Assembly: GCA_934464615.1 (NCBI GenBank)
Contig: CAKSKA010000001.1
Location: 103,159-167,158, forward strand
Length of the DNA stretch: 64,000 nucleotides
Direction of reading: 5' to 3'
Source of the DNA: an uncultured Eubacteriales bacterium
GTDB taxonomy: Bacteria; Bacillota; Clostridia; Oscillospirales; Acutalibacteraceae
Position numbers and translations under genes: made by a program
Notes under the pieces: model-generated
What the model saw: the letters and a program-made list of their open reading frames with translations, nothing else
Database searches by the model: none
What the model was told of the DNA's origin: nothing
In this document: piece after piece, positions 13,898-27,856 of the stretch
Layout of the letters: every line of letters begins with the position of its first letter
Numbering within the stretch: the first letter of the stretch is position 1

Positions 13898-14665
13898 ATG
13901 AATAAAGCTAAAAGAAAAACAGTTATTGCAGGTAACTGGAAAATGAACAACACACCGGCACAGACAACAGAGCTTATCAATGCTATGAAACCCCTTGTTA
14001 AAGACGCTGACTGCGACGTTGTACTTTGCGTACCGTTTGTTGATATTGCTGCCGCAACAAAAGCGGCTGAGAGCTCAAACATTAAAATCGGTGCCGAAAA
14101 TGTGCATTTTAAGGCATCGGGAGCATATACCGGCGAAGTTTCCGCCGAAATGCTTACCGCGTGCGGCGTTGAATATGTTGTAATCGGTCACAGCGAAAGA
14201 AGAACTTACTTCGGCGAGACCGACCAGACCGTTAATCTGCGTACTTTGGCTGCGCTTAACGCCGGACTTAAGGCAATTATTTGCGTAGGCGAAACATTAG
14301 AGCAGAGGGAACTCGGCTATACCGAAACTCTGCTTAAATTCCAGACAAAAATGGCGCTTACAAATGTTACGGGCGAGCAGCTTAAAAACGTAATTATAGC
14401 TTATGAGCCTGTTTGGGCAATAGGCACAGGCGTTACCGCTACGGCAGAACAGGCAGACGAAGGCAACGGATATGTACGTGCGGCAATTGCGGAAGTTTTC
14501 GGCAATGACGCTGCAGAATCCGTTACGGTACAGTACGGCGGTTCTATGAATGCTAAGAATGCGGAAGAACTGCTCGGCAAAACAAATGTTGACGGCGGAC
14601 TTATAGGCGGCGCATCTTTAAAGGCGGAAGATTTTTCCGTTATAGTTAAAGCCGCTTCAAAATAA
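13898..14665 (+). CDS. tpiA: Triosephosphate isomerase
   Basis: AGNWKMN, VIGHSERR and AYEPVWAIGTG motifs. Confidence 0.97.
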   Translation: MNKAKRKTVIAGNWKMNNTPAQTTELINAMKPLVKDADCDVVLCVPFVDIAAATKAAESSNIKIGAENVHFKASGAYTGEVSAEMLTACGVEYVVIGHSERRTYFGETDQTVNLRTLAALNAGLKAIICVGETLEQRELGYTETLLKFQTKMALTNVTGEQLKNVIIAYEPVWAIGTGVTATAEQADEGNGYVRAAIAEVFGNDAAESVTVQYGGSMNAKNAEELLGKTNVDGGLIGGASLKAEDFSVIVKAASK

Positions 14666-14671
14666 GAATGG

Positions 14672-16213
14672 GTGAAAAATATGAAAAAACCGGTTGTTTT
14701 AACAATTATGGACGGATTCGGTATAAATAAGGAGCATAAGGGCAATGCGATTTATGCTGCAAACACACCGCATCTTGACGAAATATTTAAGGATTGGCCT
14801 ACAACCCAGATAGGCGCTTCGGGCATGGACGTAGGTCTGCCCGACGGACAAATGGGTAACAGCGAAGTCGGACACACAAATATCGGTGCCGGCAGAGTTG
14901 TTTATCAGGAACTTACCCGTATTACAAAATCAATAAAGGACGGGGACTTCTTTAAAAACGAGGCGTTTTTAAAGGCAGTGGAAAACGTAAAGAAAACCGG
15001 CGGTGCGCTGCACCTTATGGGACTTCTCTCAAACGGCGGCGTACACAGCCATATTGAGCATATGTTTGCTTTGGTTGAACTTGCAAAACGCGAGGGAATT
15101 GAAAAAGTTTATATCCATGCTTTGCTTGACGGACGCGATGTTCCGCCGGCTTCCGCAGCGGATTTTATTGATGAAACAAATGCCGAATTAAAGGAAATCG
15201 GCATAGGAAAAATCGCTACCGTTATGGGCAGATTTTACGGTATGGACCGCGACAACCGTTGGGAACGCGTAGGCAAGGCGTATGCCGCACTTGTATACGG
15301 TGAGGGTATTACCACCGACGATGCCGCAGCAGCCGTAAGGAAATCATATACAGAGATTGACGCCGACGGCAAACATATAACCGACGAGTTTGTTCTGCCT
15401 ACCGTAGTAAACGGTACCGAAAGGATTAAATCGGGCGACAGCGTTATATTCTTCAATTTCCGTCCCGACAGAGCAAGGGAAATTACCCGCACATTTGTAG
15501 ATCCCGATTTTACGGGATTTGAAAGAAAAACAGGCAAACTTGACCTTTGCTATGTTTGTATGACGCAGTACGACGCTTCTATGCCGAATGTTGAAGTTGC
15601 CTTTAAACCGGAATCGCTTGATAACACATTGGGCGAGTATCTTGCTAAAAACGATATGACGCAACTGCGTATTGCCGAAACAGAAAAGTATGCGCATGTA
15701 ACCTTCTTTTTCAACGGCGGACGTGAGGTTGAATTTAAGGGTGAGGATAGAATTCTTGTTAATTCTCCGAAAGTTGCAACCTACGATTTACAGCCTGAGA
15801 TGAGCGCCGTTCCGGTTTGCGATAAGGTTTGCGATGCTATTGAAAGCGGCAAGTATGATGTTGTTATATTGAATTTTGCAAACTGCGATATGGTAGGACA
15901 CACAGGCGTGTTTGATGCGGCGGTAAAGGCTGTTGAAACGGTTGATACCTGCGTAGGACGCGTAAAGGATTCCACACTTAAAATGGGCGGTGTTATGTTG
16001 CTGACGGCAGACCACGGCAATGCAGACTGCATGGTAGCTCCGGACGGCTCTCCGTTTACGGCGCATACAACCAACCCCGTTCCGTTTGCCGTAATAGGCA
16101 GGCAGTGCAAACTGCGCAGCGACGGCAGACTCTGCGATATTTCACCTACAATATTAAAGCTGCTCGGCTTGCCGCAGCCCAAAGAAATGACGGGCATTTC
16201 TATAGTTGAATAG
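14672..16213 (+). CDS. gpmI: 2,3-bisphosphoglycerate-independent phosphoglycerate mutase
   Basis: iPGM motifs MDGFG, NSEVGHTNIGAGR, GGVHSH and ADHGNA. Length 513 aa. Confidence 0.97.
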   Translation: MKNMKKPVVLTIMDGFGINKEHKGNAIYAANTPHLDEIFKDWPTTQIGASGMDVGLPDGQMGNSEVGHTNIGAGRVVYQELTRITKSIKDGDFFKNEAFLKAVENVKKTGGALHLMGLLSNGGVHSHIEHMFALVELAKREGIEKVYIHALLDGRDVPPASAADFIDETNAELKEIGIGKIATVMGRFYGMDRDNRWERVGKAYAALVYGEGITTDDAAAAVRKSYTEIDADGKHITDEFVLPTVVNGTERIKSGDSVIFFNFRPDRAREITRTFVDPDFTGFERKTGKLDLCYVCMTQYDASMPNVEVAFKPESLDNTLGEYLAKNDMTQLRIAETEKYAHVTFFFNGGREVEFKGEDRILVNSPKVATYDLQPEMSAVPVCDKVCDAIESGKYDVVILNFANCDMVGHTGVFDAAVKAVETVDTCVGRVKDSTLKMGGVMLLTADHGNADCMVAPDGSPFTAHTTNPVPFAVIGRQCKLRSDGRLCDISPTILKLLGLPQPKEMTGISIVE

Positions 16214-16245
16214 GAATTGCGTAAGAATAAAGGGCTTTTAAAATG

Positions 16246-16286
16246 AAATACGCCCCAAAAGTATAACACTTTTGGGGCGTATTTTT
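16246..16286. repeat. 41-bp direct repeat copy 1 = bidirectional terminator hairpin after gpmI
   Basis: AAATACGCCCCAAAAGTATAACACTTTTGGGGCGTATTTTT: a 14-bp stem with A/T-run flanks. Identical to 18112-18152. Confidence 0.9.
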
Positions 16287-16316
16287 ATCTGTACTTATCC
16301 TGACGAACAGTAAAAA

Positions 16317-16973
16317 TTATTTTTCAACAACATCTTTAACGATTTTGTCAAAATATTTGGATACTATGTGCAGACAAAATTCTTTCATCAAGGTCTCGTT
16401 TTCCTGCTTACTGCCATATATTTTGCCTGTTATCGGTGATTCCAATTCAACCATAAAATTCTGTAATATTGCCATAAAATCTTTTCCTGCAATAATATCC
16501 TTATATCGTTTAATGTACTGCACCAGTATGCCAAAGCGCTCGTGCGACAGTAAAGAATTTACTATTTCCAAAGTTTCTTTTGCATTGTTCATATTATATG
16601 GCAAAACATCTTTTTCAAAATCAAGCCCAAGTTTTTCACAATCATCTCTCATAAAGTTGCCTTTGCCTTGTGCTAATAATTGTAACCCCAGAAAATACTT
16701 TGTTGTGTTGTCGCTAAGTCCTAATTGATTTGCCGTCTTTTCGGCAATTTTGTCCTCGCGAATATCACTGTTCCCAATTAAGTAATCACAAGAAACTCCA
16801 AGATACTTTGCCATTTTCCCGGCAAGAATAATATCCGGATTGCGTTTTCCCAATACATAGAAGTTGATACTCTGCCGTGAACATTCAACAGCATCGGCAA
16901 ACGCACCTTGCGATATGCCTTTTTCAATTAGTAATTGTTCTAATCTTTTTCCGAAAATTTGTTGCGTCGGCAT
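16317..16973 (-). CDS. XRE-family transcriptional regulator (HTH_3 N-terminus, uncharacterised C-terminal domain)
   Basis: HTH region FGKRLEQLLIEKGISQGAFADAVECSRQSINFYVLGKRNPD. ATG 16973 is preferred because AAAGGGA lies 8 nt upstream. Confidence 0.8.
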   Translation of the reverse strand: MPTQQIFGKRLEQLLIEKGISQGAFADAVECSRQSINFYVLGKRNPDIILAGKMAKYLGVSCDYLIGNSDIREDKIAEKTANQLGLSDNTTKYFLGLQLLAQGKGNFMRDDCEKLGLDFEKDVLPYNMNNAKETLEIVNSLLSHERFGILVQYIKRYKDIIAGKDFMAILQNFMVELESPITGKIYGSKQENETLMKEFCLHIVSKYFDKIVKDVVEK

Positions 16974-16997
16974 GGGTATAGTCCCTTTCTGTATATA

Positions 16998-17028
16998 TTT
17001 GTAGCGTAACAATATTTTTTGCTACAAA
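16998..17028. promoter_or_regulatory. Inverted repeat, candidate operator for the XRE regulator
   Basis: TTTGTAGC-N15-GCTACAAA. It abuts the -35 of the + strand promoter and lies in the 5' UTR of the regulator gene. Confidence 0.4.
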
Positions 17029-17031
17029 CAG

Positions 17032-17060
17032 TTGACAAATAAATATCTGTAGCATATAAT
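17032..17060 (+). promoter_or_regulatory. Perfect consensus sigma-70 type promoter facing the toxin-immunity genes
   Basis: TTGACA (17032-17037), 17-nt spacer, TATAAT (17055-17060). Confidence 0.7.
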
Positions 17061-17062
17061 AT

Positions 17063-17091
17063 ATTATAGCAACAACAGTTGTCTGTGTCAA
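17063..17091 (-). promoter_or_regulatory. Perfect consensus sigma-70 type promoter facing the XRE regulator gene
   Basis: Minus strand: TTGACA (17091-17086), 17-nt spacer, TATAAT (17068-17063). Confidence 0.7.
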
Positions 17092-17155
17092 GTCTTGCAG
17101 ATTAAGTTTTGCACTTGTTAAAAAGATTATGATATAACGGGAAGAGGCAAACAAA

Positions 17156-17722
17156 TTGAGTTTAGAAACGGCCGTATTAGTTGCGGCGATAAACGGTGAC
17201 AAGTTAGCACCGAAACTATCAGAAAGTATTAATTATAAACATTGGCTTTCTATTGAGGATATGAGACGATGTTTGCCGTGTGCCGAAAATCATGGAAAAA
17301 TTTATCTAATGGAAGAAATAGCAGAACCTCGTACGCCTTTGCATCGTAACTGCCGTCGCTACCTTGAAAAAATGATAACGATAGACGCCGGAACAGCTAC
17401 GGTAAATGGCACCGAAGGGGCGGATTGGACATTAAAATATGACGGTAAATTGCCAAATTACTATGTTACAAAAAAATATGCAAACGAAAAAGGGTGGAAA
17501 GCAGGAAAATGGTTGTCCGATTTTGTACCCACCGTGATGATGACCGGTGGAATTTATAGGAATGACGATAAACACTTACCGCAAAAAAATGGTAGGATTT
17601 GGTATGAGGCAGACATTAACTATAAATCAGGAAAGCGAAACAAACAGCGTGTAGTATGGTCTAATGATGGCTTAATATTTGTCACATATGACCACTACAA
17701 AACATTTTATGAAATTGTATAA
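17156..17722 (+). CDS. Barnase-family ribonuclease toxin with an N-terminal phage MuF C-terminal-motif remnant
   Basis: The C-terminal ~95 aa align with barnase (KLPNYYVTKK...GRIWYEADINYKSGKRNKQRVVWSNDGLIFVTYDHYKTFYEI). Equivalents of K27, E73, R83, R87 and H102 are retained. The N-terminal WLSIEDMRRCLPCAENHGKIY...PLHRNCR resembles the end of the Phage_Mu_F domain. TTG start behind GAAGAGG. Confidence 0.85.
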   Translation: MSLETAVLVAAINGDKLAPKLSESINYKHWLSIEDMRRCLPCAENHGKIYLMEEIAEPRTPLHRNCRRYLEKMITIDAGTATVNGTEGADWTLKYDGKLPNYYVTKKYANEKGWKAGKWLSDFVPTVMMTGGIYRNDDKHLPQKNGRIWYEADINYKSGKRNKQRVVWSNDGLIFVTYDHYKTFYEIV

Positions 17723-17733
17723 AGGTGAAAAAT

Positions 17734-18018
17734 ATGAAAATCATTGAGTTGGATTTAACCGGATGCAGCTGCTTGTACGACATACATGAAAGAATTAAAA
17801 ATGCATTTGATTTCGACAATGAATATGGTCATAATTGGAGTGCTTTTTGGGATATGCTATGGAGCGAGTGCGACGCTGACAAAATAATAATCAAGGGTGA
17901 GAACACTTTACCAAGCGAACTCGATGAAACAATCGCAAAGCTTCATGAAATATTGGAAAGAAACAAAATTGAGCGAGCGACGTTTGATTGGCCGTTTGAT
18001 TATGAAATAATTTGTTAG
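17734..18018 (+). CDS. Barstar-family ribonuclease inhibitor (immunity protein)
   Basis: LYDIHERIKNAFDFDNEYGHNWSAFWDMLWS aligns with barstar [31 protein letters not shown]; W38 and D39 equivalents are kept. Starts 12 nt after the toxin stop. ATG 17734 lies behind AAAGGTG. Confidence 0.8.
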   Translation: MKIIELDLTGCSCLYDIHERIKNAFDFDNEYGHNWSAFWDMLWSECDADKIIIKGENTLPSELDETIAKLHEILERNKIERATFDWPFDYEIIC

Positions 18019-18111
18019 AAATAATAACAGACAAGATAAAAAGCTGTTGTATACTGATTGCATTGCTTTATCTGTTGCATAGCATAATTTTTTGTTTTGT
18101 CGTAAATAAAA

Positions 18112-18152
18112 AAATACGCCCCAAAAGTATAACACTTTTGGGGCGTATTTTT
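18112..18152. repeat. 41-bp direct repeat copy 2 = bidirectional terminator hairpin after kdgK
   Basis: Identical to 16246-16286. Lies 18 nt beyond the kdgK stop. Confidence 0.9.
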
Positions 18153-18169
18153 TATATTTTTGTGTTAAT

Positions 18170-19192
18170 TCAGCGTTGCACTCTGCCGGAGCCGTCGCCC
18201 TTTGCAAGTTTTTCAACTTCGCTTACGGTTACACGGTTAAAGTCACCCTCTACCGAATGTTTAAGGGCAGATGCCGCAACCGCAAATTCAATGGCATCGG
18301 CAGTGTTTTTACCGGAAAGCAGAGCATAAATAAGTCCGCCGCCGAAACTGTCGCCGCCGCCTACACGGTCGACAATATGCAGGTGATATTCTTTTGAGAA
18401 GCAGTAATCTTTGCCGTCGTAAAGCATACCGGCCCAATTATTGTCCGAAGCGGAAATAGACGTGCGCAATGTAATTGCAACCTTTTCAAAATTAAACTTT
18501 TCCGCCAACTGTTTGGCAACGGATTTATAACCTTCCTTATTTAATTTGCCGCCGTAAATATCTGTGTTTTCCGCCTCAATACCAAATACGTCTTTGGCGT
18601 CCTCTTCGTTGGAAATACAAACATCAACATATTTGCAAAGTTCGCTCATAGCGGCATTTGCTTCCTGTCTTGTCCACAATTTACCGCGGTAGTTTAAATC
18701 ACAGGAAATTTTAACACCGTGGTTTTTAGCGGCAATGCACGCCTGTTTGCATATTTCCACCATATTACCGCCGAGCGCGGGGGTTATTCCTGTAAAGTGG
18801 AACCAATCGGCACCGTCAAATATTTCATCCCAATTAAAATCTTCCGGAACGGCCTTTTGTATTGCTGAGCCTGCGCGGTCATAAATACATACGCTTCCGC
18901 GCTGAGAGGCGCCCTTTTCAAGGTAATATATACCAACCCTGTCGCCGCCGCGCGTAATGTGCGATGTATCTACACCGAAATACCTTAACGAATTTACAGC
19001 CGCCTGACCTATTGCGTGTTCCGGCAACTTTGTTACAAAGGAAGCGTCCATGCCGAAATTCGCAAGGGAAACCGCAACATTTGCTTCACCGCCGCCGAAT
19101 GTGGCTTGCAGTTGATCGTTTTGGAAAAACCTGTAGTATCCGTTTGGTGCCAAACGGAGCATTATTTCACCGAAAGTAACTATTTTAGCCAT
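18170..19192 (-). CDS. kdgK: 2-dehydro-3-deoxygluconokinase (PfkB family)
   Basis: PfkB signatures GGGEANVAVSL and DRVGGGDSFGGGLIYAL. ATG 19192 lies behind AAGGAG and overlaps the eda stop by 8 nt. Confidence 0.88.
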   Translation of the reverse strand: MAKIVTFGEIMLRLAPNGYYRFFQNDQLQATFGGGEANVAVSLANFGMDASFVTKLPEHAIGQAAVNSLRYFGVDTSHITRGGDRVGIYYLEKGASQRGSVCIYDRAGSAIQKAVPEDFNWDEIFDGADWFHFTGITPALGGNMVEICKQACIAAKNHGVKISCDLNYRGKLWTRQEANAAMSELCKYVDVCISNEEDAKDVFGIEAENTDIYGGKLNKEGYKSVAKQLAEKFNFEKVAITLRTSISASDNNWAGMLYDGKDYCFSKEYHLHIVDRVGGGDSFGGGLIYALLSGKNTADAIEFAVAASALKHSVEGDFNRVTVSEVEKLAKGDGSGRVQR

Positions 19193-19832
19193 TGTTTCTG
19201 CACTCCTTAACAATTTTTACCGATTTTTCGCACAAAGCGGTTATTTCATCAAATTTACCGTTATCAATTAAATCGGCTGTTACCATATAAGAGCCGCCGC
19301 AGGCACATATTACCGGACAGGATATATATTCCGCAAGATTTTTAAGCGAGATACCGCCTGTGGGCATTACTTTAAACATGGGGAACGGCGCACTCATGGC
19401 TTTGATCTTTGCAAGTCCGCCGGATTGTTCGGCAGGGAAGAACTTAAGCACCTTAAGTCCGAGTTTATATGCCGTGTGGTAATCCGTAGGAGTAGTGCAG
19501 CCGGGGAAAATATCAATATTCCTGCTTTGCGCGTACTTTACAAGTTCCGTATCAAGTCCCGGTGTTACAATAAATTTTGCACCGGCATTGATTGCTTGGT
19601 CAATCTGTTCTGTTGTAAGAACCGTTCCGGCACCTACAGCCATTTCGGGATGTGCCTTGCTCATAATTTCAATTGCTTTTGCCGCGCCTGCCGCACGGAA
19701 TGTAACTTCCGCCACGGGAACACCGCCTGCACACAACGCGTCTGCCAACGGCTTAGCGTCACGCTCGGGATTGTTCAGTTTAATTACCGGAACAACACCG
19801 ATTTCGGTTACTTTGTCTGCTATGTAACTCAT
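19185..19832 (-). CDS. eda: 2-dehydro-3-deoxyphosphogluconate (KDPG) aldolase
   Basis: KDPG/KHG aldolase family pattern (GVPVAEVTFR, GAGTVLT, LKFFPAEQSGG). Paired with kdgK. Confidence 0.88.
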   Translation of the reverse strand: MSYIADKVTEIGVVPVIKLNNPERDAKPLADALCAGGVPVAEVTFRAAGAAKAIEIMSKAHPEMAVGAGTVLTTEQIDQAINAGAKFIVTPGLDTELVKYAQSRNIDIFPGCTTPTDYHTAYKLGLKVLKFFPAEQSGGLAKIKAMSAPFPMFKVMPTGGISLKNLAEYISCPVICACGGSYMVTADLIDNGKFDEITALCEKSVKIVKECRNNG

Positions 19833-19963
19833 TTAAAACACCTCTTAAGTATTTACATATATGTTATACAAGGTATGGAAAATATATATGTATTTATCTT
19901 GTACAACACAATGATAATATTTTACGTCGAGGCAGTCAACAACGATATTACGAAATATGCAAA

Positions 19964-20662
19964 CTATTTTACGATGTTTTTCTCCTTCATCATCCTTGCA
20001 ATATAAACAAAGGGCGTATCAAGCAGGCTTGTAAAAATATATATAACGTAACTTGAAATTACTATGGAAATCAATGTTTTATTATCATAAACACCGAAAA
20101 ATGCCGTAAAATTGAATATAACGGTATTTACTATTTGCGAAATAAGTGTTGAAAAGTTGTTTCTGAACCATAAAAAGCGATGTCTGTCGCCGCTTTTTTC
20201 AGATGTAAGATCCCACCATTTGTGGTATAAAAACACATCAAGACGCTGCGATACGGCATATCCCAATATGCTTGCCGCCACAAGACGCGGTGTTGTGGAA
20301 AATATTACAGACAGGCTTTCCCGTGCAAAGTCGTTTTCGCTTGGTGTATATAAAAACCAAAATTGCGAAAGGCCGAGCATTGCAACTGCTGCAAAAATGC
20401 CTATGTATACGGCTTTGTTTGCTGCTTTTTTTCCGTAATTTTCACTTAAAATATCCGTTATAAGATATGTGCTTGCAAACAAAACATTTCCGAGCGTCTG
20501 CTCCATACCGAAAGCGCGTATTAAAAGCAGCACTTCAATATTTGCCAAAACGGTGGCGATTACCGTAAAAGCAAACAGTCCGGACTTTCCGAAAAGGCGG
20601 TATGCCAGCAGCACGCCGCCGTAGATTATAACAACCGATAGTAAAAGCAATAATTCATTCAT
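19964..20662 (-). CDS. Queuosine-precursor transporter, YhhQ/VUT (DUF165) family
   Basis: Multi-TM protein with family-like motifs (FASTYLITDILSENYG, GYAVSQRLDVFLYHKWW, STLISQIVNTVIF) resembling E. coli YhhQ. Confidence 0.75.
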   Translation of the reverse strand: MNELLLLLSVVIIYGGVLLAYRLFGKSGLFAFTVIATVLANIEVLLLIRAFGMEQTLGNVLFASTYLITDILSENYGKKAANKAVYIGIFAAVAMLGLSQFWFLYTPSENDFARESLSVIFSTTPRLVAASILGYAVSQRLDVFLYHKWWDLTSEKSGDRHRFLWFRNNFSTLISQIVNTVIFNFTAFFGVYDNKTLISIVISSYVIYIFTSLLDTPFVYIARMMKEKNIVK

Positions 20663-27267: not shown

Positions 27268-27358
27268 ATAATTTAATTTAAATTTTCAATTTAAAACGCT
27301 TGACAAAAAATGGCGACACATATATAATATATACCGTGACTATTGGAGGGGAAATTCT

Positions 27359-27856
27359 GTGATATTGGATTTAAAAAAGGCTTTTATAACAGAAAATTAT
27401 TCCTCTGCGGTAGAATATGACCTTGATTTGTCGGATATTTCTTACGGTGCGCTGCATCCGCTGCGCGATCCCGTAAAAGTTTCGGCAAAGGTTGAAAACC
27501 GTGCCGGTGTTGTACTGTTAAGTATACACTGTACTGCTTTTTACAATGCACCGTGTGACCGCTGCGGCGAGGAATGCACAGAGGAAATTGCGGTGGATAG
27601 TGAGTATATCCTTGCTACCGAACTTGAAAATGAGGATAATGACACTATCCTGCTTGTAAGCGACATGGAGCTTAACTTGGACGAGCTTTGCAGGACAGAC
27701 GTATTGCTTCATATCCCGACGAAGCATCTCTGCAGTAAAAATTGCAAGGGCATTTGCTCAGGCTGCGGGAAAAATCTTAACAGGGAAAAGTGTATCTGTC
27801 CCCCACAGGAAACAGATCCGCGACTTGCACCGTTGGCACAGCTGTTGAAAGATTAG
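27359..27856 (+). CDS. yceD: YceD/DUF177 family protein (large ribosomal subunit accumulation)
   Basis: C-terminal Cys cluster CSKNCKGICSGCGKNLN. Conserved position directly upstream of rpmF. GTG start behind GGAGGGG. Confidence 0.8.
   Translation: MILDLKKAFITENYSSAVEYDLDLSDISYGALHPLRDPVKVSAKVENRAGVVLLSIHCTAFYNAPCDRCGEECTEEIAVDSEYILATELENEDNDTILLVSDMELNLDELCRTDVLLHIPTKHLCSKNCKGICSGCGKNLNREKCICPPQETDPRLAPLAQLLKD

Follow-up and report, generated by a model that had tools for sequence, protein, structure and literature searches.

What kind of control is exercised by two perfect consensus promoters whose -10 boxes abut, one pointing at a regulator gene and the other at a toxin gene? The question is raised by a 64,000-nucleotide stretch of contig CAKSKA010000001.1 from an uncultured Eubacteriales bacterium (the whole stretch is referred to below as the window, and coordinates are counted from its first letter). 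A gene for an XRE-family regulator is read leftward here and an operon for a barnase-type RNase toxin and its immunity protein rightward. In the region between them the original prediction had seen two face-to-face promoters that might form a mutually exclusive switch and give phage-like bistable control of the toxin. Both promoters were found exactly where they had been placed: on the + strand TTGACA (17032-17037) and TATAAT (17055-17060), and on the - strand TTGACA (17091-17086) and TATAAT (17068-17063), with 17 nt between the hexamers in each case. Just 2 bp separate the -10 hexamers (17055-17060 and 17063-17068), and the whole forms a perfect 14-bp palindrome, TATAATATATTATA.

17032..17060, + strand: promoter P1, TTGACA-17-TATAAT, directed toward the toxin-immunity operon; predicted start ~17067
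17063..17091, - strand: promoter PXRE, TTGACA-17-TGCTATAAT, with an extended -10 (TGn), directed toward the XRE gene; predicted start ~17056

Occurrence, geometry and conservation of the promoter pair

In a consensus scan P1 and PXRE ranked at the top and were the sole 12/12 matches within positions 14000-20000. The perfect pattern TTGACA-17-TATAAT occurred three times in the 64-kb window and not once in 100 dinucleotide-preserving shuffles. The whole 1.65-Mb genome contained 53 copies of it and one of a reversed control pattern, which implies that the organism really uses this consensus. The motifs at 16998-17091 are far beyond chance. When the genome was scanned for interdigitated pairs with at least 10/12 on both sides, 16 were obtained, compared with 2-7 in shuffles; P1/PXRE was the only pair that reached 12/12 both ways, and one of only two in which the -10 boxes are adjacent and not shared. 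Thirteen of the 16 candidates belong to the class with a shared -10 and an 18-bp start spacing, as in other bacteria (e.g. C2:36432, C3:88307 and C6:96043). The third perfect copy in the window (27300-27328) lies ~30 nt upstream of an open reading frame (ORF) for a Cys-rich protein of 165 amino acids (aa; 27359-27856), followed by a small ORF whose translation we take to resemble ribosomal protein L32. This copy looks like an ordinary strong housekeeping promoter.

Start sites were predicted from the -10 positions as ~7 nt (range 5-9) past each hexamer. This puts the + start at 17065-17069, reading rightward, and the - start at 17054-17058, reading leftward. The central values (~17067 and ~17056) are 11 bp apart and diverge, with ~10 bp between them predicted to remain untranscribed. 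As had been claimed, each predicted start falls in the -10 hexamer of the opposing promoter. The claimed overlap of the two transcripts at their 5' ends does not follow from this: the predicted starts diverge, and an overlap would require summed -10-to-start distances of at most 3 nt, which is impossible. No antisense overlap at the 5' ends is thus expected. Similarly, the description of the promoters as face to face has to be given up, since in a convergent pair with overlapping transcripts the + start would lie to the left of the - start, and here it does not.

The arrangement is instead one that is known. By definition, the two starts of a bidirectional promoter diverge and are separated by 7-25 bp (PMC10268837); the commonest spacing is 18 bp, with 10 and 23 bp also common (PMC12825309). 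By its predicted starts, the region 17032-17091 is an interdigitated bidirectional promoter of the ~10-bp class. It has the juxtaposed -10 boxes of such promoters (17055-17060/17063-17068), and the -11A and -7T of both orientations (positions 17056, 17060, 17067 and 17063) were invariant at 2.00 bits in the alignment described below, the middle positions of both hexamers being looser. In such a geometry, steric constraints prevent two opposing polymerases from binding simultaneously (PMC12825309), so that the expectation of one polymerase at a time holds.

The conservation of this architecture was studied in 35 loci in which the XRE protein is 46-98% identical to that of the window. A close-set alignment comprised 22 distinct intergenic regions, and bit scores of the core were calculated over 20 close homologues. 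The module was encountered again in other genomes of the same genus, in 20 loci of metagenome-assembled genomes labelled Acutalibacteraceae, Oscillospiraceae, Ruminococcaceae or simply Clostridia, and in four metagenome contigs; more distant loci were reached by a protein search through 73 XRE clusters. Both promoters, interdigitated and each with at least 10/12, were present in 29 of the 35 loci, and in 9 of the 35 both scored 12/12. The geometry also holds at 46-65% XRE identity, and with an RHS, Tox-WTIP, DUF6883 or RNase protein encoded behind P1. Of the 29 loci, 24 have 2 bp between the -10 boxes and four have 1 bp, and in the remaining one the hexamers overlap by 2 bp; the predicted starts are accordingly 11, 12 and 15 bp apart, respectively. 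The -35 hexamers scored 2.00 bits (PXRE) and 1.86 bits (P1), and the TGn extension of PXRE is kept in 28 of the 29. P1 and PXRE both look functional on these grounds. Short DNA matches in relatives that had been collected as L004, L005 and L006 were discarded as unrelated consensus promoters; one of the three precedes a tRNA gene.

Operator candidates and the XRE regulator

The original prediction had also described an inverted repeat to the left of P1 and a further half-site in the spacer of the toxin promoter. The repeat, TTTGTAGC (16998-17005)-N15-GCTACAAA (17021-17028), is exact; 3 bp separate it from the P1 -35 downstream, and within the predicted XRE leader it occupies about +28 to +58. 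The half-site is a third TGTAGC, at 17048-17053. These words are conserved and operator-like, and they stand beside a divergent XRE gene. The present analysis adds that the third half-site has a partner on the far side of the -10 boxes, which yields a second inverted repeat.

16998..17028, no strand: operator candidate IR-L, TTTGTAGC-N15-GCTACAAA, conserved arms with a drifting spacer
17048..17074, no strand: operator candidate IR-R, TGTAGC (17048-17053)-N15-GCAACA (17069-17074), new in this analysis

IR-R has the same geometry as IR-L (TGTAGC-N15-GCTACA), and its 15-bp spacer, composed of A, TATAAT, AT and ATTATA, holds both -10 boxes. A search of the 1.65-Mb genome for TGTAGC-N15-GCWACA returned IR-L and IR-R as its sole matches. 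The four half-sites read, in order, TATTTGTAGC, GTTTTGTAGC, cAAAAGTAGC and CTTTTGTTGC in the homologues, those of IR-L being perfect and those of IR-R imperfect. In IR-L the arms scored 1.94 and 1.54 bits and the 15-nt spacer 0.59 bits, although the spacer length is held at 14-15. The arms of IR-R scored 1.89 bits (GTAGC) and 2.00 bits (GCAAC), with a spacer that is invariably 15 in the close set. Distant homologues in which both IR-R arms could be recognised again have a GTWGC-N14/15-GCWAC pair around the -10 boxes. Promoter function accounts for only the TG of the PXRE extension within these near-invariant arms. Since the two arms of IR-R would fall in different transcripts, this repeat is not an RNA hairpin and can act only on DNA.

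The AlphaFold2 model of the XRE protein (mean pLDDT 87.8) consists of a helix-turn-helix (HTH) domain (residues 1-66), a low-confidence linker (~70-80) and an all-helical C-terminal domain (88-217). The HTH domain has the five-helix fold of the 434 repressor, SinR and the C proteins. In a Foldseek comparison with the PDB it was this domain only that gave matches, none of them better than E 2e-3; CylR2, SinR, C.BclI, C.AhdI, the 434 repressor and an arbitrium-phage repressor were among the proteins matched. At the sequence level it matched phrog_8 and phrog_3 in PHROGs and capH and Control_protein in PADLOC. The C-terminal domain of ~130 aa had no match in Pfam, NCBIfam, PADLOC, PHROGs or the PDB, by sequence or by fold. 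Residues C31, S32, R33, Q34, S35, N37 and Y39 of the recognition helix do not vary among 40 homologues with identities as low as 47%, and this constancy matches that of the GTWGC core of the half-sites. XRE is predicted to bind two operators of the form GTWGC-N14/15-GCWAC.

Two further elements to the right of the core were considered. A third operator in the P2 spacer (P2 is described below), represented by TTTGTGC, was rejected, as no convincing partner half-site was present. The same spacer region contains a conserved block (17108-17122, CTATACTTTTGTGC in relatives) that can pair with the predicted 5' end of the P1 transcript (GCAACAAAAGTA); a 5'-terminal stem of this sort could stabilise the mRNA. 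The predicted stem folds with a weak consensus energy and lacks clear covariation. The block is also like an operator half-site minus one base.

Proposed joint repression and its alternatives

We think it probable, with some reservation, that XRE represses P1 and PXRE jointly through the operator over the -10 pair, and that the polymerases compete only after derepression. Start sites, binding of XRE and direction of regulation are predictions from the sequence in this proposal. P1 would fire rightward into the toxin-immunity operon from ~17067 and PXRE leftward into the XRE gene from ~17056. Both open complexes would melt the same ~14 bp, allowing polymerase to occupy a given DNA molecule in one orientation only. 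XRE bound at IR-R, with its half-sites flanking the -10 pair, would shut P1 and PXRE together, which amounts to toxin repression and negative autoregulation at once. Because IR-R straddles both -10 boxes, joint repression and not an either/or choice is what is predicted. Because IR-L borders on the P1 -35 and is part of the XRE leader, XRE at this site should add to the repression of P1, act as a roadblock to transcription of its own gene, or do both. Upon inactivation of XRE, both consensus promoters would fire and compete for polymerase; the inactivating signal is presumably sensed by the C-terminal domain. Of the mutually exclusive switch that had been proposed, the steric exclusion of polymerases thus stands, on the strength of the literature, but the either/or choice is not supported, IR-R predicting joint repression.

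The toxin operon appears to have a promoter of its own in addition to the core.

17130..17138, + strand: promoter P2, an extended -10 (TGnTATAAT in relatives) that reads TGATATAAC in the window; predicted start ~17145

P2 adjoins the ribosome-binding site of the toxin gene, 17 nt upstream of its start codon. In the alignment of 22 regions its T, G and TATAAT scored 1.7-2.0 bits and its 'n' 0.44 bits, a profile characteristic of extended -10 promoters, and it was present in 20 of the 22 close homologues. The critical T at -7 is replaced by C in the window but is retained in sister strains (TGATATAAT). With tandem promoters the transcription of the toxin-immunity operon should not depend on the interlocked core alone, and in relatives P2 would provide a core-independent route to it.

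Several points weigh against joint repression as we propose it. The first group comes from natural alleles that have lost the core by deletion between direct repeats.

17027..17034, + strand: left copy of the 8-bp direct repeat AACAGTTG, one end of a 47-bp deletion seen in the alignment with L050 and L051
17074..17081, + strand: right copy of AACAGTTG, the other end of the 47-bp deletion

L050 and L051 are two independent metagenome assemblies of sister strains, in which XRE is 98% identical to that of the window and the insertion site beside gpmI is the same. They lack the 47 bp between the AACAGTTG repeats, and outside this gap only 2 of 166 aligned bases differ from the window, one of them being the P2 -7 position (T in the sisters, C in the window). 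The deletion in L018 and L029 is one of 29 bp, between direct repeats of CAACAAAAG. Both deletions remove the two -10 boxes and IR-R and leave P2 and the XRE reading frame intact. Two different direct-repeat deletions thus show that natural strains can do without the core and that its loss occurred on more than one occasion. Its loss may reflect selection against it or simple slippage between the repeats, and XRE may have another promoter in these alleles or play little role in them. As to the operators, the ~21 bp between half-site centres are a wide spacing for a typical XRE dimer, and IR-L and IR-R are separated by ~4.6 helical turns, out of phase for simple looping; a factor other than XRE may read the repeats. 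Finally, promoters of perfect consensus can be limited at promoter escape, which makes the real strengths of P1 and PXRE uncertain.

The original prediction, a bistable switch, would demand that XRE at IR-L repress P1 only and that active P1 exclude PXRE. The resulting double-negative loop would have a regulator-ON/toxin-OFF and a toxin-ON/regulator-OFF state and would produce a toxin-expressing subpopulation. Steric exclusion is real for this geometry (PMC12825309), and because both promoters are of consensus grade a competitive regime is possible, unlike in the E. coli examples that were tested. The perfect half-sites of IR-L and the imperfect ones of IR-R would permit graded occupancy, and for toxins that lack export signals release by lysis of a subpopulation makes biological sense. 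What speaks against such a loop is that it has one regulator and no antagonist, and that XRE would have to block P1 yet spare PXRE, while IR-R, centred on both -10 boxes, predicts that the two are shut off jointly. Moreover, P2 allows transcription of the toxin operon without the core, transcripts that do not overlap offer no antisense reinforcement, and core-deleted alleles persist. Bistability in this form has no support here and is regarded as unlikely. The phage-like character ascribed to it finds no counterpart at the locus either: there is a single regulator without a Cro-like partner, no phage genes are seen and viral contigs gave no match. The two antagonistic regulators of a CI/Cro system are missing, and the locus is not in a prophage or phage genome. 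An elaboration of the same idea, which we hold to be quite unlikely, would make the cassette a portable single-regulator bet-hedging device, in which consensus-strength promoters exclude each other, XRE prefers IR-L, and a minority of toxin-ON/regulator-OFF cells lyse as colicin producers do and set free polymorphic toxins that lack export signals. If true, this would provide the first demonstration that a natural bidirectional promoter can operate under polymerase competition and produce bistability, and the cassette would control polymorphic toxins generally in gut Clostridia.

Two other explanations dispense with one or the other component of joint repression, and we consider both to be very unlikely. 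According to one of them only one direction works, the opposite promoter being a by-product of a palindromic operator and the near-palindromic TATAAT. The near-symmetry of this hexamer indeed yields many apparent -10 boxes on the opposite strand, and a single -10 is shared in most of the genomic pairs counted above, which exceed a shuffled background of 2-7. Nevertheless, at 17032-17091 each direction has its own near-invariant -35 at exactly 17 bp and the -11A/-7T signature in its -10 box, the TGn of PXRE is almost always kept, and no alternative XRE promoter was seen in the 83-nt XRE leader. According to the other, the inverted repeats are not operators for a protein but act as RNA leader hairpins that determine how stable the XRE or toxin mRNA is or how well it is translated. 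IR-L lies wholly in the predicted XRE leader and could be 95% paired across 20 sequences; its few arm substitutions fit G-U pairs on the XRE-leader strand. The XRE leader of the window has a folding z-score of -2.0, with other half-sites paired, and in the P1 leader the 5' end has a possible pairing partner in the conserved block. Against this, the pairing of IR-L is uninformative, as compensatory changes are absent from it, its loop would be 14-15 nt of free sequence, and IR-R, with arms on different transcripts, has the same half-site and spacing as IR-L. For the P1 leader the consensus energy amounts to no more than -2.2 kcal/mol, and only one pair shows two-state covariation.

The islet, its relatives and known regulatory designs

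The genes served by the promoter pair are the following.

16317..16973, - strand: XRE-family regulator gene, 218 aa; Pfam HTH_3 (PF01381) at residues 11-65, E 8.9e-12, 45 bits against a 23-bit cut-off
16982..16988, - strand: probable ribosome-binding site of the XRE gene, AAAGGGA (GGAGG in relatives), from sequence and alignment
17156..17722, + strand: toxin gene, 188 aa, TTG start; barnase-type RNase, Pfam Ribonuclease PF00545, E 7e-10
17725..18018, + strand: Barstar-type immunity gene; Pfam Barstar PF01337, E 1.2e-12

The ATG at 16973 was taken as the XRE start because homologues begin with M-x-x-QQIFG, and the true barstar start is probably the ATG at 17734, homologues beginning with MKIIELD. 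A TTG start of the toxin gene is found in nearly all loci. The N-terminus of the toxin is a short MuF/SPP1-gp7-like piece, the match to TIGR01641 (minor capsid) being weak and below cut-off. The immunity protein matches Barstar only, and a DNA-binding domain was not found in it with Pfam; the islet has one HTH protein, and the divergent operon encodes the RNase and barstar only. The three genes make up an islet of 1.8 kb that lies between gpmI and kdgK and has identical 41-nt terminator hairpins at its edges (16246-16286 and 18112-18152). An empty site was recognised in a genome of the same genus (L048, 1364-1501), in which gpmI and kdgK are convergent neighbours 136 bp apart. Neither a recombinase nor a transposase is present inside the islet, and no phage genes were seen at it. 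A phage origin was considered and set aside, as neither the XRE protein nor the core DNA pattern had a match in the viral contigs of IMG/VR.

In the relatives, the commonest cargo behind P1 is an RNase with a MuF tail followed by one to three barstar genes. Some loci have a protein that ends in DUF6883 with a different small downstream gene, one has a peptidoglycan-binding Tox-WTIP protein, two have RHS/YD toxins of the 1,750-aa class, and another two have larger unknown proteins followed by a DUF4176 protein. The same regulatory cassette is thus found before RNase/barstar (one to three copies), DUF6883, Tox-WTIP and RHS/YD toxins. The loci fit the description of polymorphic toxin systems, which have a conserved N-terminal part, a variable C-terminal toxin domain, a cognate immunity gene downstream and orphan immunity genes, and because the cargo differs between loci the regulator and promoter region can be described as a conserved front end for such toxins. 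In L034 and L041 (XRE 56% and 46% identical) a protein of 321 or 337 aa comes first, then one of 231 or 224 aa and finally a DUF4176 protein. L034 adjoins a D5_N/DUF5906 primase gene and L041 a serine recombinase gene, which places the cassette beside genes of mobile elements. Some genomes carry two copies of the module (L012 and L017, ~6.4 kb apart on one contig; L002 and L007 in one genome). Two or three tandem barstars, which look like the orphan immunity genes that are typical of polymorphic toxin loci, occur in some copies (L015, 1083-1729 of the oriented region), and the RNase gene is split or truncated in 4 of the 22 close homologues (L010, L014, L016 and L028), with barstar and promoter core intact. 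L027 (2900-2960, - strand) has a 47%-identical XRE homologue, no toxin gene nearby and opposed -10 boxes TATAAT-TA-ATTATA, nested in a larger palindrome TGATATAAT...ATTATATCA; the divergent side of this locus faces a large secreted protein.

Prokaryotic bidirectional promoters have come to be recognised only in recent years. The core resembles those described by Warman, Grainger and colleagues (PMC12825309, PMC10268837) in the order -35(+), -10(+), -10(-), -35(-), in a predicted 11-bp spacing within 7-25 bp, with each start in or beside the other -10 and orientations that exclude each other, and in its position between divergent, functionally linked genes on horizontally acquired DNA. The five bidirectional promoters that were tested in E. 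coli all had a basal activity too low for polymerase competition (PMC12825309). The present pair differs from them in having full consensus -35 and -10 elements both ways with 17-bp spacers and -10 boxes that are adjacent (2 bp) instead of shared, its starts being predicted ones. At PacrA/acrR and PsoxS/soxR, a regulator encoded beside the bidirectional promoter (AcrR and SoxR, respectively) acts on it; SoxR covers the start site of its own gene together with part of the corresponding -10, and activates one direction while blocking the other (PMC12825309). The locus studied here likewise has a regulator gene on one side, but this is an XRE protein and not a TetR (AcrR) or MerR (SoxR) one, and its operator brackets both -10 boxes symmetrically, which predicts repression two ways.

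With the switches of temperate phages the locus shares an HTH repressor gene divergent from the controlled genes and several operators, and the XRE HTH resembles phage repressors. In lambda, PR and PRM are arranged back to back, while Pe/Pc of P2 and pR/pL of 186 are face to face, with overlapping transcripts in P2 and 186. The islet has no second regulator of the Cro or Apl type and no prophage context; its predicted transcripts do not overlap as in P2 and 186, and its promoters are interlocked, not side by side as in lambda. An analogy based on the HTH similarity can be drawn to the C proteins of restriction-modification systems and CapH of CBASS, small XRE-type autoregulators of potentially self-toxic genes that act via paired palindromic operators, as is predicted here. 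The match to these proteins is confined to the HTH, however, and the present regulator has an extra C-terminal domain of ~130 aa. C proteins are furthermore co-transcribed with their targets, whereas this XRE gene is transcribed divergently from an interlocked promoter. Unlike in type II toxin-antitoxin autoregulation, the DNA-binding domain is on a separate divergent regulator and not on the immunity protein. The cargo, in turn, is comparable to the MuF polymorphic toxins of temperate phages (PMC5576092) in its MuF/gp7-like motif, variable C-terminal toxin domain, small immunity gene and polymorphism between loci. It differs from them by a MuF tail that is short in a protein of 188 aa, by the lack of a phage head module nearby and by its location in a 1.8-kb chromosomal islet.

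The promoter at 17032-17091 is therefore a strong and unusually clean example of a known bidirectional design and not a new switch principle. What stands out is the full consensus both ways, the operator that brackets both -10 boxes symmetrically and the reuse of the cassette before unrelated toxins. Polymerase competition could be studied here in a natural, conserved example with consensus-grade promoters both ways, and this example comes with ready-made natural mutants, namely the 47-bp and 29-bp core deletions and the T/C difference at P2 -7 between the window and its sister strains. From a practical point of view, it is a compact 60-bp promoter with two outputs under one predicted repressor. 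To our knowledge, no work has been published on the regulation of these polymorphic toxins in gut Oscillospirales-type bacteria. For these bacteria, an uncharacterised XRE subfamily and its probable operator constitute a common front end for RNase, DUF6883, Tox-WTIP and RHS toxins.

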